The notes under the pieces are model-generated. The model was not told the origin of the DNA. It was given only the letters and a program-made list of their open reading frames with translations, and ran no database searches. From positions 1 to 64,000 of IMG/VR virus record IMGVR_UViG_3300031867_000009: DNA of 64,000 nt. The stretch is one strand, 5' to 3'. Below are positions 27,486 to 34,859 of the stretch, in pieces. The stretch's first letter is position 1. Each line of letters starts with the position of its first letter. The position numbers and the translations under genes are program-made. The stretch is from a virus (Duplodnaviria; Caudoviricetes).

Positions 27486-27655
27486 TCCAATAGATACCCC
27501 TCAGTAATTTCAGCCCAAGGATTTGCTGAATCTCCTAAATAAATTTCTTCACAATATTTTATCTTTTCAAAACGCTCTCCAAACATATCAAATATTAAAG
27601 CATCCTGAGGATACTTTTTTAGTTCTTCAATTAAATCTCCTATTGTCTTTATCAT
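27482..27655 (-). CDS. Small hypothetical protein (57 aa, not in ORF track)
   Basis: MIKTIGDLIEELKKYPQDA...GYLLE. ATGA overlaps with the dnaE stop and with the next start. Confidence 0.65.
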   Translation of the reverse strand: MIKTIGDLIEELKKYPQDALIFDMFGERFEKIKYCEEIYLGDSANPWAEITEGYLLE

Positions 27656-30600
27656 GCTTCTTCACGCTCCAATTTAGTTTGAATATATCCACTATCATCA
27701 ATTGATGTGATAAGTTCAACCAAGTGATGTGGTGTATTCTTATATTTTTTTGCTATAAAATCATTATCTCTCCTAATTCCAGTTATGATTACCTTATTTC
27801 CGCGCGACAGCCATGATTTTTCTTTTACATGCTTTACTCCATCTGCGCCTTTTTCAGATATTTGTCTATCATAATGTGTGAACGCATCACCAAATATCTT
27901 TACAGTCACGACGCTATCATTTGTCAATAAAGTGACCATCTTCTTATTCTTATCTTTGTCTAATACTGTCCCCGCAATACGACATATTTTAAATAGTGGG
28001 ATTTTCTGTCCCGTCTCCTTCGACCTGAACTCATAATTCACAACTGGATTCTCTGGAAGCTGACTAAAATTACTCAATCCATAAAACCCATTTCTTAAAT
28101 TCTTCAATTCATGGTCATGAATATAACATGAGATTGAATCCATTTCCCACTGACTTATATTTCCTTGACAATATTTATCCCATAAATCTTGTCTCAGTTT
28201 CCAATTTACTTTCTCTAATAACAATTCATTATTATCTTTTATAAATGGACGAATCTTATCCATTTGTTTCTTATATATCTTATCCCAATCGGTTTGCTTA
28301 ATCTTAAACACATAATTTGAGTCTGGTGTTAACAAATCCATATCAAAATATTCAGAATAGAAGTTTAATGCTATATTATCTATTCCATAATAATTATCAA
28401 ACTTCATTTTCTTTAAATATTTATTAAAAGCATAAACTCTACATTGAAATTCATAATCCTCTGGGATAAAATCAAAATTAATTAACATCTGTAAGTTTTG
28501 AAGAGTCATTCTCTTTTTCTTATCAGCAATTAAATCAATATACACATTCATTGCTTTTATGCGGTCGCCGCCGTATAAATCATCAAATGCGCCCGACTTA
28601 ATCAAGTTAATCATTTGAGGTTTGTTTATTTTAATCTTACTTATAAAATCTTCAATTGACTCATAAGGTCTATTATCCATAATCTGACGAACTAAATCAT
28701 CACCAACACGAGTTATACCACTTAATCCATAAATAATTCTATGGTTCTCTATATCTGGCGCGAATGTATATTCAGATTTATTTATATCTGTTGCTACAAT
28801 TGTCACACCTTCATGACTCATTTTACCAATTGCCGTAGCAATCTTACCATAGTTGGCGCTCTTAGTTACTTTCTTTTTCTTAGTTCCTGAAGCAGACTCT
28901 TCCTCGTCTGTTTCATTATTATTTTCACTATCTTCTTCCTCTTCTTCCGTTTCGAATATTCCGAATGAAGTATCGTAAGAATTTTCTTCAACATTATCAA
29001 TAATTTCATCATCTTCATCTTCTTTTTCTGCGCCACCACTATCAGAGATAAGACACGCACAATCCCATAGAATTGCCGGATAACGATATGCGAGATTTAA
29101 CTCTTGTAATCCAATTAACGAGTATGCAAGTGTGTGTGAAAGATTAAATCCATATCCTTTTGACATTGCAATTAATACATTCCACACATATGTGCATAAA
29201 CGCTCGTCTAATCCTTTTTCTTTTATAATCTTAAAATATTCTTCTGTCAGCTTCTCATATTCTGCTGGATTCTTCTTCGCAATTGACTTTCTTAACTTAT
29301 CTGCCCATGTAAGGTCAAATCCGCCAAGTTCTGGAAGCTGAACAAGCTGCATGAACTGTTCTTGTGCAATACACAATCCATATGATACACTTAATACTGG
29401 TTCTAATATTTCTTTTGCTTCCGCGCCGAGTCCATACTTTCTCAACTCATAATCCCAATCATCAGGATGTGCTTTGAATCGCGCGAGCTTGTTAACTGGC
29501 ATCTCTCCGCCTTTCTCTGTTGCCATCAGACGAATTGCCGAGTTAAGAATTGCCAAGTCATCTACTGATGTTGGTTTCATCGCAGCAATTCCATTTATTC
29601 CAGACTGTTTTTCCATCTGGAACAAACTCATTACTTTATGCTCCCAACACATCTTCCACATTTCTGGTGCTTCACGCTCAAGATTATATATACCTATAAT
29701 TTTTTCATAGGTTTCTTTTAATGTTGGTTCTGCTTTTTCATATCCATATTTACATATGAGGTCGATACAATTATGAATTTTATCTAATGCTTCTACTGAC
29801 AGAATATCATATTTAATAAGACCAGTTGCTTCTGCATCATGGAGGTCAAACTGTGTTATAATTTCACCCTTTGGCGCACGCATAAGTGCTGTTGATTCTG
29901 TGAATGGTTCATCAACAAAGATAACTCCGCCTGCATGGATTCCGCAACCATTTATAAGTCCTTCAATTCCTTGCGCGACTCTCCATACTTCTGGATAGTT
30001 CTCTTCCATTTCAATTCGGAACTGACTTGATGCGCTCATTCCATTGTCTGGGTCGCCATAGAATGTTTGTTTCAGAGTTCTCAGCTGACCTCTATCCGCC
30101 TGGATAAATGAAGAAAGATAAGCTGCTATGTCGTTGTCTATACCAAGACCGCGGCAAGCCGTCTGAATTGCTGACTTGGACTTTTCAGTTTTCAATGTCA
30201 ATACATTCGCGACTCTATCTTCACCATATATCTTACGGAAGTTCTTTAATACTTCTGCGCGCCGGCCACCCTCGATGTCAATATCTACATCAAGAACCGA
30301 TACACGCTCTGGGTTCAGAAATCTCCAACGCTTTGTTTGACTCTTTTCTCTTAATGGATTTATCTGTGTAATACCTAACAGATATAACAATATAAATCCT
30401 ACTCCAGAGCCACGGCCGCAACCTACAAGGGTTCCAGCATCCCAACACGCATCAATAATATTTTGAAGATTTAAGAAATATGCACTCCATCTACTTCCAT
30501 TTACTTCCGATGAAATCCATGTATCTTCAAGACATGCATTGATTTCATCATATGTTGCTTGGTTATTTAATTCTTCTTCTGGTTTTGCTTCTGCTAATCG

Positions 30601-31679
30601 ATTTATAATTGCACACGCTAAGTGTCTATCTTCAGAATAATCTGACTCATAAAACTTTTTAAGATATGGAATTTTTTCTATATAGAAGTTTTTATTGTGT
30701 GTTAATTCAAATCTTTTCCAATTTAATCTTGGTATATTTAAAGACTTCATCAATGAATAATCTTCACATTTATCTCTTATTTCTTCTATTGTCTTATATG
30801 CTTTTTGTATTACTTCTTCTCCTAATGATTCTTCCATATACTCATGAATTTCTTCATCACTCATCAAAAAAGTCGTTGCATAAAAATCATCAACTTCTCT
30901 ATCTCCCTGTTGTGAGTTAAGAAAAGCTTTGTGAATTGGTCTATCTGCTTTCTTTAAATAATGGGCATCATTTGTTATGATATATTTAATACCCATTTCT
31001 TCACCAAGCTCAACCAATTTCTTATTTACATATATCTGGTCTTTATTAAACGATGGCTGCATTTCAAAATAGAAATCATCTACTCCAAAAATTCCCTGCA
31101 TCTGAACAATCCATCGCTTAATTAAATCCATCGACGGCGCGCCAGTATCTCTATTGCGTAAAAGCTGTGTTGGAAGACAACCTCCAAGACATGCCGTGCA
31201 TCCAATTACATGCCCTGGATTCTCGCCAATTATATCAATGAGGTCTTGATAATAAGTTGGAACTCTACGCATGCGGCGAGCTACATAACTTCTAATCCAC
31301 GCACGCGAAGAAATCTCGCGGATTTGTCTATGTCCGATTGCATCGCGAGCAATTAAAATACAATGAAAGTATCTATCAGTTTCTTTCTTATAATTGTTGG
31401 CATTTAAACCGTTTCTAACTAAATAAATCTCATTCCCTCTAATAAGTTTTAGATTAGGATACTTCTCTTTAACCTTATTCATATACTTCTCTGCTCTAAT
31501 ATGAGAAGCAATTGTATCATGTTCGGTTATTGCAACTACACTATGACCTAATTCTCCGGCATAGTCAATAAGAGACTCAACCGTGTTAATTGAGTCTCTG
31601 AGGCGGAAATTGCTAAAGTCTGTGTGGTTCCTCAGTTATGAAGACTTCCCGGATAAACCATTTGTCCTATTGTCTTCAC
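27652..31679 (-). CDS. dnaE: DNA polymerase III alpha (DnaE-type). True start GTG 31679; reading frame interrupted by an 8-nt gap at 31627-31634
   Basis: GRGSG, DVDID, HAGG, KYDIL, GYGFNLSH, NDAHY. The PHP N-terminus (PGSLHN / HTDFS...TEHD) lies upstream of the ORF-track ATG 31482, behind a GGAGGTG RBS. Confidence 0.92.
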
Positions 31680-31713
31680 TACTGCATCACCTCCTTTTCT
31701 ATTTTATTTTATG

Positions 31714-31872
31714 TTATAATTGCTCTAATATAGACTTAAAATATTGTATTAATTCTTGGTCTTCTTGTCTTCGTTTTTCGTCATCTTCTATTGAAGAACT
31801 ATAGTCACTACAATAAAAACCTGTTGCATCTTCTAAAGCATCAATATATAATTGTAATAGCTTTTCTTTCAT
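31714..31872 (-). CDS. Small hypothetical protein (52 aa, not in ORF track)
   Basis: MKEKLLQLYIDALEDATG...SILEQL with AAGGA RBS, downstream of promoter 31905-31933. Confidence 0.6.
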   Translation of the reverse strand: MKEKLLQLYIDALEDATGFYCSDYSSSIEDDEKRRQEDQELIQYFKSILEQL

Positions 31873-31904: not shown

Positions 31905-31933
31905 ATTATATCAAAATTTTATTTATTTGTCAA
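31905..31933 (-). promoter_or_regulatory. Sigma-A-type promoter driving dnaE
   Basis: TTGACA-17 nt-TATAAT, TG extended -10. Confidence 0.85.
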
Positions 31934-32214: not shown

Positions 32215-33099
32215 CTATGTAATTAAAAACTGTGATGTTTCTGGACGCAAATCATCTATTGTGATTTTATTTTCATGCCAATATGGAATACGAATTAATG
32301 GAATATTATGAGTTTTACAATAAGTAGTTTTTAATTCATCATTTTTTTGTAATTGTTCTAATGAATAATTATTCCATCCTGCTCCACCCCAATGCTGACG
32401 ACCATCAAATTCAATACAATAATTATTATTAACATAAAAATCAAAACGATAATAATGCCCTTCTAAACCACGCAAATCTGCAAATCCATACTCAGTTTTA
32501 AAAGATATATTATTTGTTTTTAAAATATCTGCGATTTTTCTTTCTCCTGGGGTGGTTCTTAAACATCCACAAGATTTAACCTTATTATGTGTTAAATCAA
32601 CCGTTTTTACTTCTTTTAAATTACCGCAATCACACTTGCAGAGCCAATATAACTGTCCATTTTTTCTTCTTGATACTTTAATAGCGGTAAGTTTTCCAAA
32701 ACGCTTATTGGTTAAGTCATATTTTGGGGTTAAATCTTGAAGCATACATCCACAAGATTTCACTTGACCGCTGGTTAAATTACCACTACGAACCCAAGTT
32801 TCTTTACCACATTCACACTTACATTTCCAATATATTATGCCATTATAAGATTTATATTCATCTAAAACAGTTAATTTTCCATACTTTTCTCCTACTCTAT
32901 TCTTACGTAAAATAGCACTTTTACATTCTTTACATTGAGTAATATCACCGGAACGTAATCTTTTACCTAATACATCTCTGTAATTACCACATTCGCATTG
33001 ACAGTGCCACATTGCTCCGTCTTTTTTAGGATTATCTATTTTATACAATACTGTTAATTTACCATATTTATTTCCAGTTTCATCTTTATAATTTGGCAT
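32215..33099 (-). CDS. Putative free-standing homing endonuclease (3 CxCxCG repeats + PD-(D/E)xK/Vsr-like domain)
   Basis: Three YGKLTV...W.C.C.CG...L.SG...SCGC repeats. C-terminal RFDF...IEFDGRQH...K..YC..HNIPLIRI. Confidence 0.7.
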   Translation of the reverse strand: MPNYKDETGNKYGKLTVLYKIDNPKKDGAMWHCQCECGNYRDVLGKRLRSGDITQCKECKSAILRKNRVGEKYGKLTVLDEYKSYNGIIYWKCKCECGKETWVRSGNLTSGQVKSCGCMLQDLTPKYDLTNKRFGKLTAIKVSRRKNGQLYWLCKCDCGNLKEVKTVDLTHNKVKSCGCLRTTPGERKIADILKTNNISFKTEYGFADLRGLEGHYYRFDFYVNNNYCIEFDGRQHWGGAGWNNYSLEQLQKNDELKTTYCKTHNIPLIRIPYWHENKITIDDLRPETSQFLIT

Positions 33100-33101
33100 A
33101 A

Positions 33102-34859
33102 TTAAAACCCCAATGTTCCGTCTTCAATCTGATAATTGCTTATAAAGATTTGAGGTGTCGCATATCCACCCCAATAATTCACATTTGCTCTGCCAACAAC
33201 TTCTAATTTAATCTCACCTGGATACTTACCAAGCTCCTCAATCATATCTTTTGCATGGAACTTCATATAAGCAATTCCAAACTTTTCAATTTTAACCGTT
33301 GAATTGTCTTTACCCATAACTCTAATATCATTCTTTGTGATATTAATATCCTTAATATGAATTAAAGGTTCGTTGTTTTGTTGGCCCCACAGGTCATCAT
33401 GGTTGGCTATATCTACAATTAAATTTTCTATGTCGCTGTCTGCGGCGATGCGCTCAAAGTTTACTTCATACCATGATTCACCAAAATCCATATTGGCAAG
33501 TTCCTTATTCGCATATTCATGGAAAGCTGCGAGATTTTTATCTAAAATACCTATACCACATGCGTTATCATGGCCCGCAGTGAAAGTGAAATAACCGCTA
33601 TTATCCATGAAGTTCTTAAAAGACGTAAGTTCCGATTCATTTAAACCTCTACTTGACCCTTTGATTTCTCCCTCATTATTTAGTCTTGCAACAATAGTCG
33701 GCTTCTTATACTTTGCTGAAAGCTTCATAGCTACAAGTCCATTTAATTCCGGAGGAAATTGGTCATCTTCTTCTAATCTAACAAACAATATTTTATTTTC
33801 AAGCAAGTCATGCTTTGCTATTTTAATTTCTAATTCTTCAACAGCCTTATCAAGTATGCGATTTTGTTTTGCTCTTGCATTTGTGCATTCGCGCGCCGAC
33901 TCAATAGCGACCTCTTCGAATGTTCCCTTAGCTCCGCGTTTGTGAGATTCAACCAGTGCGTGTCCGTCGATAAAGGCTTGGAAACAGCGTTGCTTTTCGT
34001 CTTCGGCGCCCGCGCGAATCATTGCATTGATAAGTGGGGTTATATAAAAGGCAACGCTAATTGGATTGACTTTACCGCCCATTGAGAAAGATTGTTTTTC
34101 ACACAAAGCTTTAAAGAAATAGTTATTTATATTATTAAGACCCGTATGAACGATATATCTGTTTTCAAGCGATAGCATCGACATCATATCACTTATAATA
34201 CCAAGTGCTGCGAGGTCAATATATTCGTCGGCATAAGATGTAGCCATATGCCTATCTATATATCTACAAAATTGCCATGTAACCCCAGCGCCACAAAGGT
34301 CTTTATTTTTATAATTTGGAGATAGTTGATTATTTACAATCGCTGCACGGTCACAGAATTTTGTATCTGGCTCTACTATGTGGTGGTCAAGAATTAAAAA
34401 GCTTGGTATTACATTGCCTTCTCTTTCCATTATTAACTTTTCCATATACTCATAGTCATTACTACCAGCATCAGGTAATACAACATATGATGGACAGGTG
34501 TTAAATACATCCTCATAGGTGTCTGAAAGTCCGTGACCTTTACCTTTGTGAAGTATTGGAACTATATTTACTTCTTGATTAAATTTACGTAGATACTGTA
34601 TGAAAATTGCGGCCGAAGTAAATCCGTCTACATCACTATCTACAACCACAGCTATTGTTTCATCTTTTGTAGCTTGAGTCATAAGTATAAATAATGTTCG
34701 AGCTTGGTCGATATTATCTAATAGGGTAGGGTCTTCAAGATAACTATCATCTGGCACGTCAAGAAAATATTGAAGTTCCTCGGGGCTAAGCCCACGTTCC
34801 ATTAAAAGTTCATTGGTATAATTCTCTCTTATATCTTTATTAACTAACTTTGTCTTCAT
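33102..34859 (-). CDS. recJ: RecJ-like ssDNA exonuclease (DHH family)
   Basis: DSDVDG, LDHH, LCGAGV, SDMM, GSSR, AGHDNACG. Confidence 0.9.
   Translation of the reverse strand: MKTKLVNKDIRENYTNELLMERGLSPEELQYFLDVPDDSYLEDPTLLDNIDQARTLFILMTQATKDETIAVVVDSDVDGFTSAAIFIQYLRKFNQEVNIVPILHKGKGHGLSDTYEDVFNTCPSYVVLPDAGSNDYEYMEKLIMEREGNVIPSFLILDHHIVEPDTKFCDRAAIVNNQLSPNYKNKDLCGAGVTWQFCRYIDRHMATSYADEYIDLAALGIISDMMSMLSLENRYIVHTGLNNINNYFFKALCEKQSFSMGGKVNPISVAFYITPLINAMIRAGAEDEKQRCFQAFIDGHALVESHKRGAKGTFEEVAIESARECTNARAKQNRILDKAVEELEIKIAKHDLLENKILFVRLEEDDQFPPELNGLVAMKLSAKYKKPTIVARLNNEGEIKGSSRGLNESELTSFKNFMDNSGYFTFTAGHDNACGIGILDKNLAAFHEYANKELANMDFGESWYEVNFERIAADSDIENLIVDIANHDDLWGQQNNEPLIHIKDINITKNDIRVMGKDNSTVKIEKFGIAYMKFHAKDMIEELGKYPGEIKLEVVGRANVNYWGGYATPQIFISNYQIEDGTLGF

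Follow-up and report, generated by a model that had tools for sequence, protein, structure and literature searches.

The 5' end of dnaE

The window analysed here is a stretch of 64,000 nucleotides (nt) that forms part of a 135,306-bp viral contig in IMG/VR (IMGVR_UViG_3300031867_000009), the source genome of which CheckV rates as 100% complete. Its minus strand carries dnaE, the gene for the alpha subunit of DNA polymerase III, and this gene is complete (Pfam matches PF02811, PF07733, PF17657 and PF14579, all above cut-offs) apart from an 8-nt break. A search of the complete genome for other DNA polymerases gave no family A or family B matches, and dnaE is the sole one detected. In this uncultured 135-kb phage the sole polymerase gene is thus broken, by 8 nt, after 15 codons, and we propose that it is read by ribosome hopping, which would be a very rare way of reading a gene. 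The features of the site, in window coordinates, are:

31688..31694, minus strand: Shine-Dalgarno sequence GGAGGTG of the mini-frame, strong, read from the sequence
31679-31677, minus strand: start codon GTG, read from the sequence
31635..31679, minus strand: first frame (the mini-frame) of 15 codons, from GTG to the take-off AAC, encoding MKTIGQMVYPGSLHN, read from the sequence
31635..31637, minus strand: proposed take-off codon AAC (Asn)
31630..31634, minus strand: proposed untranslated gap, made up of the TGA stop (31634-31632) and GG (31631-31630)
31627..31629, minus strand: proposed landing codon AAC, after which decoding would restart at CAC 31626
27652..31626, minus strand: main dnaE frame from CAC to the stop codon, with PHP, Pol III alpha, finger and HhH domains

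The junction reads CTT CAT AAC TGA GG AAC CAC ACA GAC, in which the GAGG inside the gap looks Shine-Dalgarno-like, and the first His of the PHP HxH motif sits in the 15-codon mini-frame. An earlier, sequence-only reading of this DNA had described a mini-frame that begins with GGAGGTG and GTG 31679 and ends in AAC TGA GG AAC, a main frame lacking a start codon until 31482, and an LHNHTD motif that returns once 8 nt are removed. The window sequence confirms all three. The frame from 31629 is open for 1325 codons, as far as the stop at 27652, and the main frame runs for 48 codons without ATG, GTG or TTG before its first start, ATG 31482. Without the 8 nt the joined product would have 1339 amino acids and contain LHNHTD, which about 40 unbroken relatives also encode. 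When the whole 135-kb genome was scanned for the arrangement codon, stop, gap, same codon, the dnaE site was a clear outlier after filtering, the unfiltered scans being mostly noise.

Gap alleles in related dnaE genes

We compared the site with dnaE from about 70 related loci, taken from viral and metagenome contigs, at 54-97% protein identity. Most of these relatives are unbroken, with about 40 distinct alleles reading ...LH NHTDFS NFRLRD..., and blastn found no close DNA relatives of the window among cultured phages. The identical AAC TGA GG AAC is present in contigs of at least four other assemblies (L013/L050, L016/L052, L045 and L081), and because the same layout thereby occurs in at least five independent assemblies, the insert is not a private assembly error. 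Judged from these sequences, the coding gap of 8 nt is genuine and inherited, and it interrupts the one DNA polymerase gene detected in the phage. It is conceivable that the segment is removed before translation, by slippage on the AAC repeat that deletes it from some of the DNA or by excision from the RNA, or that it is an assembly artefact after all, and the 3-nt direct repeats that flank the insert would suit such a removal. A 3-nt repeat is a poor substrate for slippage, though, and the non-identical flanks of other alleles (AAT/AAC, TCT/TCC, TCT/TCA) preclude precise excision by repeat slippage. We know of no RNA processing that removes segments of 6-10 nt, and variants of the insert occur in many more contigs, making removal or artefact extremely unlikely.

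The sequence-only reading had suggested aligning the 5' ends of dnaE from related phages, and in that alignment the layout of codon, stop, gap and matching codon recurs. Gaps of 6-10 nt are present in fourteen distinct loci, as ten alleles that fall at three codons (Asn, Ser and His):

Asn site: AAC TGA GG AAC (8 nt); AAC TGA GGA AAC (9 nt); AAT TGA G AAC (7 nt)
Ser site, 8 nt: TCT TGA GG TCT; TCT TGA AG TCT; TCT TGA GG TTT
Ser site, other lengths: TCT TGA ATG TCT (9 nt); TCT TAG GTGA TCC (10 nt); TCT TAG TCA (6 nt)
His site: CAT TGA CC CAA (8 nt)

The insert opens with an in-frame stop (TGA or TAG) in every one of the ten alleles, and in eight the landing codon is cognate to the take-off tRNA, the other two matching at two of three positions. 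Deleting the insert from the gap alleles recovers the conserved protein exactly.

The hop lengths of 6, 7, 8, 9 and 10 nt represent all three frames (0, +1 and +2), and it is here that allele-specific recoding has to be weighed, in which the 8-nt alleles would be read by a -1 (or +2) frameshift, the 7- and 10-nt alleles by a +1 frameshift and the 6- and 9-nt alleles by readthrough, with two to three extra residues in the PHP domain. A -1 slip is conceivable in the 8-nt alleles of the TCT type, in which the new frame lacks stops over 19-97 nt upstream and the stop follows a U-run (GAU UUU UCU), and the distant locus L028 has an in-frame TAG at a Gln position, a hint of stop reassignment in the wider clade. 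Recoding nevertheless needs three mechanisms for one family of sites. In the window the two frames are open together for just 4 nt, and a -1 slip would place tRNA-Asn on UAA, while in L035 the new (+1) frame meets its own TGA within the gap. The three in-frame alleles would require readthrough, adding residues within the metal-binding HxH/TD motif that no unbroken relative tolerates, and there is no suppressor tRNA among the 29 tRNA genes of the window's genome. Upstream structure, moreover, is not known to stimulate -1 frameshifting. We consider recoding unlikely, and favour one hop mechanism over frameshifting and readthrough because all frames occur and because L035 has a stop in both frames.

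Stop-codon reassignment as such was considered and rejected, given the lack of a suppressor tRNA and of in-frame TGA or TAG codons in dnaE, and it cannot mend gaps of 7, 8 or 10 nt. As a separate observation, the in-frame TAG of L028 (L028:5020-5035, dnaE codon 676) stands where its sister L027 has CAA (Gln), in a dnaE that is otherwise intact, and it may indicate TAG-to-Gln reassignment in that more distant (54% identical) lineage.

A Shine-Dalgarno-like gap was also tried, as a general signal, and discarded: GAGG or AGGTGATC occurs in some gaps and is absent from the TGAAG, TAG-only, TGAATG and TGACC alleles. The 10-nt gap of L035 and L006, TAGGTGATCC, includes AGGTGATC, which we take to be complementary to the 3' end of 16S rRNA; other gaps have GAGG, and several have nothing Shine-Dalgarno-like. 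The Shine-Dalgarno sequence ahead of the gene does separate the two classes, since gap-bearing alleles share AAGGAGGTGATG and unbroken alleles have the weaker AAGGAGTAA or AGAGGTAA.

Constraint on both frames

All 14 gap-bearing dnaE genes are otherwise intact and open for about 1320 codons. Over the 200 codons past the gap, the ratio of nonsynonymous to synonymous substitution rates (dN/dS) is 0.07-0.13 in nine of ten gap-allele pairs, with dS up to 1.4; the tenth pair, L048/L070, has a ratio of 0.30. In the 43 codons that begin at the Asn-Phe-Arg anchor just past the gap, the corresponding ratio of polymorphisms (pN/pS) is 0.16, with synonymous sites near saturation, and in the window these 43 codons hold no start codon. 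Substitution patterns thus place the downstream frame under strong purifying selection. The mini-frames are conserved as well: those of the Ser-site alleles encode YPGSLHNHTDFS, with synonymous variation between alleles, and their His-x-His-Thr-Asp-Phe-Ser codons differ synonymously. A conserved mini-frame together with a constrained downstream frame suggests that both are translated, therefore, as parts of one conserved protein.

Two further explanations bear on these data. In the first, the mini-frame would be a leader peptide and DnaE would be made by re-initiation or internal initiation past the gap, the first PHP motif being dispensable. The hairpin described below and the strong ribosome-binding site could couple translation in this way, L067 has an ATG within its gap, and several alleles have a start 3-25 codons past the landing codon. 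Yet the window has no in-frame start for 48 codons downstream and those codons are constrained, the TCT-type mini-frames encode exactly the conserved YPGSLHNHTDFS and stop exactly where the second frame takes over, and matched landing codons would be purposeless. We give this explanation little likelihood. In the second, the gene would be dead or dying, its gap an indel scar of endonuclease cutting and sloppy repair, with host polymerases replicating the phage. That gaps adjoin genes for homing endonucleases, enzymes that make breaks, would fit a scar. The intact reading frames and low dN/dS ratios given above speak against it, as does the failure to find another polymerase in the complete genome, and an initial stop, a final matching codon and a tailored hairpin ahead of the gap would not be expected of every random scar. 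A dead gene is very unlikely.

A predicted hairpin between the start and take-off codons

Each sequence was folded from its start codon as far as the codon that precedes take-off. The predicted fold of every one of the 14 gap alleles has a closing stem of 7-9 bp, of which the 5' arm falls on or just past the start codon and the 3' arm ends 0-1 nt before the take-off codon:

31672..31679, minus strand: 5' arm GUGAAGAC, which includes the start codon (Asn site, predicted fold)
31638..31645, minus strand: 3' arm GUCUUCAU, which ends at the base before the take-off codon (Asn site, predicted fold)
Ser-site alleles: arms AAAAUCGGU and ACCGAUUUU (predicted fold)
Ser-site alleles L035 and L067: arms AAAAUCAGU and ACUGAUUUU, a compensatory double change from CGG/CCG to CAG/CUG
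His-site allele (L025): arms AAACUACUA and UGGUAGUUU (predicted fold)
31571..31599, minus strand: inverted repeat flagged by the sequence-only reading, stable but not specific to gap alleles

The arm sequences are of three unrelated kinds, one for each take-off site, and a column-wise count of covariation was abandoned because the arms occupy different alignment columns among alleles. The mean minimum free energy is -10.0 kcal/mol in the gap alleles versus -3.7 and -4.8 in the same segments of 34 unbroken alleles, a few of which fold similarly to gap alleles. The window's own hairpin has a predicted energy of -10.7 kcal/mol (z = -2.2), and because this z-score taken alone is modest, the case for the hairpin rests on the comparison of alleles. 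From these folds it appears as if the variable N-terminal peptide (MKT..., MKNR..., MKTTT...) is tailored to pair with the conserved codons before take-off. The stem length of 7-9 bp is close to the hop length of 6-10 nt.

Two other structures had been put forward by the sequence-only reading, and neither is retained as a hop signal. Its perfect 10-bp stem downstream of the landing codon is real and stable, forming a strong 10-12-bp hairpin inside the PHP coding region (31571-31599; -15.3 kcal/mol, z = -4.8) that is built of Asp-Ser (GAC TC) and Glu-Ser (GAG TC) codons. This stem is also found in the unbroken alleles L017, L018 and L023, the last of which keeps it with compensatory changes, and it is missing from the gap-bearing alleles L016, L021, L048 and L070, which rules it out in that role. 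The second, a hairpin with the take-off codon in its loop (UCUUCA-UAAC-UGAGGA), does exist but is ruled out as weak (-4.6 kcal/mol, z = -1.5) and unconserved: the UCUUCA/UGAGGA pairing is not kept in L048, L070, L024 and L020, and it competes for bases with the stronger, conserved start-to-take-off stem. An Rfam search of the region gave no family matches.

One further pairing was observed in the window (31600-31695, minus strand), where GAGGUG of the ribosome-binding site can pair with CGCCUC, Arg-Leu codons about 25 nt past the landing codon. The choice of CGCCUC codons is restricted to Asn-site gap alleles, and the overall fold is not significant (z = -1.0).

Homing endonuclease genes next to gap alleles

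Ten of the 14 gap loci have an endonuclease gene whose end lies at the dnaE ribosome-binding site, versus none of the roughly 40 unbroken loci, which have a RecJ-like gene, or small open reading frames (ORFs) and a consensus promoter, in that slot. The adjoining genes, and the features upstream of dnaE in the window, are:

L004, L035, L020 and L067: HNH (PF01844) gene adjoining dnaE
L021, L048 and L081: GIY-YIG (PF01541) gene adjoining dnaE
L016, L024 and L066: gene adjoining dnaE for a protein of about 406-456 amino acids, of the HNH/homing-endonuclease families PHROG 374/559/9084
31714..31872, minus strand: 52-amino-acid ORF in the slot that holds the endonuclease gene in relatives; L021 also has this ORF, upstream of its GIY-YIG gene
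31905..31933, minus strand: promoter TTGACA-17-TATAAT, a perfect motif match with extended TG
32215..33099, minus strand: gene for a 294-amino-acid protein of the HNH/homing-endonuclease families PHROG 374 and 559, with no Pfam match
33102-34859, minus strand: RecJ-like single-stranded DNA exonuclease gene (PHROG 2484), directly followed by the 294-amino-acid gene

The 5' module that carries the gap is mosaic. The gene body of L016 is 90% identical to that of the unbroken L047, and over the first 33 nt past its gap the identity is 61% to L047 and 97% to L021; compared by eye, L016 and its unbroken sister L014 are identical from about 30 nt past the Asn-Phe-Arg anchor. In a quick IQ-TREE analysis of DnaE the gap states are scattered over well-supported clades. 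For the window, similarity to other gap alleles begins about 40 nt upstream of the GTG and the sequence further upstream is unrelated; the aligned dnaE 5' region of L081 is 91% identical to it in nucleotides, and both L081 and L021 have the GIY-YIG gene where the window has the 52-amino-acid ORF. The window would carry the gap module without the endonuclease either by loss of that gene or by conversion of the flank only, and the transcript that carries the 52-amino-acid ORF and dnaE likely starts from the promoter at 31905..31933. Its nearest endonuclease-like gene, that at 32215-33099, ends about 535 nt upstream of the dnaE start. On balance, the sequences favour a cassette origin of the gap module.

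The gaps fall in the most conserved DNA of the unbroken alleles, in which there is little room for immunity through silent changes. By analogy it is plausible that the gap serves an immunity function, in which it disrupts the endonuclease target and carriers escape cutting. This link to an endonuclease cassette is a better-supported reason for the gap than the translational control switch that the sequence-only reading had entertained, for which we find nothing in support.

The region upstream of dnaE is also a hotspot for endonuclease genes across the clade. In L022, L074 and L068 the RecJ-like gene is in two fragments with a GIY-YIG endonuclease gene between them, a pattern that suggests a second neighbouring gene split by a homing endonuclease.

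A proposed hairpin-assisted stop-hop

We therefore favour, as the probable explanation, a hairpin-assisted stop-hop that is carried by a mobile endonuclease cassette like that of T4 mobA/gene 60. A ribosome would start at GTG 31679, translate 15 codons and pause with peptidyl-tRNA-Asn on AAC in the P site and UGA in the A site. The tRNA would then release, the mRNA slide by 8 nt and the tRNA re-pair with the identical AAC, and decoding would restart at CAC to give a single DnaE of 1339 amino acids with LHNHTD intact. The peptide across the junction would be GSLHN-HTDFSNFR, exactly GSLHNHTDFSNFR, with zero added residues, the insert-free sequence at the junction being CATAACCAC. By analogy with T4 gene 60, the 3' arm of the hairpin, on leaving the ribosome and pairing, would draw the mRNA forward over roughly one stem length, and the folded hairpin would also hide the start codon from the following ribosome; the hairpin thus probably assists the hop. 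The travelling 5' module would consist of the gap, the hairpin, the strong ribosome-binding site and about 30-50 nt of recoded dnaE. In relatives it would move with free-standing HNH or GIY-YIG endonuclease genes, with which association and mosaicism are evident, and the gap would most likely disrupt the endonuclease target, as in T4 MobA. The hop from AAC over TGA-GG to the matching AAC was the central proposal of the sequence-only reading, and it is well supported by the ten gap alleles.

Several points weigh against this explanation. The case for a hop rests wholly on sequence comparison and predicted folds, and the window's hairpin by itself is modest, with 6 of 200 shuffles folding as well. 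Landings are imperfect in two alleles (TCT to TTT and CAT to CAA), and in L067 the in-gap ATG makes re-initiation possible in that allele. The gap alleles share a 5' module, and on this sequence evidence their truly independent origins are fewer than ten. All four cultured relatives sampled (phages of Staphylococcus, Enterocloster, Geobacillus and Leuconostoc) have unbroken 5' ends. In the window no endonuclease gene adjoins dnaE, the slot being occupied by the 52-amino-acid ORF, and L009, with an unbroken dnaE, likewise has the gene at 32215-33099, which is therefore not tied to the gap. Finally, unassisted stop-hops in E. coli occur at about 1% or less, so the yield could be low; the stronger ribosome-binding site of the gap alleles may offset this.

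More tentatively, it is possible, if somewhat less than probable, that a minimal device suffices for an efficient hop, namely a stop, a matching codon 6-10 nt on and a start-to-take-off hairpin, and that several endonuclease families use this device to immunise conserved, essential DNA. Here the hairpin would let ribosomes in singly and pull the mRNA forward over a distance close to the hairpin's length.

The genome contains 29 tRNA genes at 95540-104440 (genome coordinates, outside the window), including tRNA-Asn(GUU), tRNA-Ser(UGA) and tRNA-His(GUG), which are the tRNAs that would perform the hops.

Comparison with known bypass systems

The T4 gene 60 bypass and the MobA element are reportedly treated by Huang in 1988 and Bonocora in 2011. 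The gap of T4 gene 60 protects its carrier from nicking by MobA, and endonuclease-free carriers of the MobA element are also known (Manning and Atkins, bioRxiv 10.1101/2022.08.31.505936). The take-off codon of gene 60 has a 5' stem-loop 9 nt upstream of it, and pairing of the exiting mRNA has been proposed as the forward driver (bioRxiv 10.1101/2024.12.09.627546). The dnaE site shares with gene 60 its matched codons, stop and 5' stem-loop (predicted here) and, judged from most of its gap-bearing relatives, an endonuclease cassette, and in both the gap falls in highly conserved coding DNA of a replication enzyme. As with MobA, there is a mosaic module that in most gap loci lies next to a free-standing homing endonuclease gene and is patchy among close relatives, and the gap persists in some genomes that would have lost the endonuclease.

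The two systems differ in many details. The gene 60 gap is 50 nt (20 nt in one clade) versus 6-10 nt here, and the dnaE gap, with 5 untranslated nt in the window, is too small for an A-site stem-loop. No nascent-peptide signal is evident at dnaE, where the chain is 15 residues long at take-off and N-termini differ between gap-allele classes. The dnaE hairpin reaches from the start codon, which it includes, right up to the take-off codon, whereas that of gene 60 lies 9 nt upstream; the host gene there encodes a topoisomerase, and dnaE has not, like it, become two ORFs with added termini. The endonucleases next to dnaE are of three types. We found no homology to gene 60 or MobA, judging by gene identity and the empty Rfam search, without direct sequence comparison. 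The dnaE site resembles gene 60 in outline and is not a member of the gene 60 family.

The terminase gene of the Streptomyces phage phiHau3 has 10-nt gaps led by UUA that are bypassed in E. coli, with the junction peptide identified by mass spectrometry (PMC10732093). The likeness lies in short gaps of 7-10 nt in an essential phage gene that are absent from relatives, in a slow-to-decode codon in the A site and in the nearby stem-loop and internal Shine-Dalgarno-like sequence that were proposed as signals. What triggers the phiHau3 bypass, however, is a rare sense codon read by a developmentally limited tRNA, suggesting regulation, whereas the dnaE trigger is a stop; no endonuclease link is reported for phiHau3. 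At dnaE the allelic series is large and covers three codons.

Unprogrammed stop-hopping in E. coli (Weiss, Dunn, Atkins and Gesteland 1987, as cited in PMC10732093) is alike in that, according to that citation, peptidyl-tRNA clears a stop to reach a matching codon a few nt on, in any frame. The E. coli events, as they are presented there, are synthetic or incidental and of low level, whereas the dnaE layout is natural and conserved, in an essential gene and with a hairpin. The mitochondrial byps of Magnusiomyces capitatus likewise comprise many mobile untranslated inserts with matched take-off and landing codons, but in the account given in PMC10732093 they are 27-55 nt long, GC-rich, mitochondrial and without a homing-endonuclease link. 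Our literature search found gene 60 and its homologues, byps and phiHau3, and no description of stop-led micro-gaps in dnaE or of their link to endonucleases.

Implications of a short-gap series

Very few natural systems of programmed translational bypassing are on record, namely gene 60 and its homologues, the yeast mitochondrial byps and the proposed phiHau3 case, and those that have been well studied rely on long gaps together with several signals. A natural series of 6-10-nt gaps at three codons of a sole polymerase gene would be a near ready-made mutagenesis experiment. Throughout the series the stop, the matching codon and the hairpin abutting the take-off codon are kept, while gap length, frame and gap sequence are free, and the minimal requirements for a ribosome hop would become testable with short reporters. 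A stop-hop would also explain how carriers of a selfish endonuclease are protected at sites where no silent substitution suffices. For annotation, gene callers will label such polymerases as truncated or as pseudogenes.

Further observations

In L091 (Enterocloster phage CB473P1, OP172755.1 57511-58935), the match to the dnaE N-terminus is annotated as a 'hypothetical protein' of 475 amino acids, and dnaE may be split or interrupted in this cultured phage. Outside the window, at genome position 69619 on the plus strand, AAA TAG TA AAA closes a frame of 5 codons, after which comes one of 333 codons; this site is a weak second candidate for the hop layout and could be a plain gene start.

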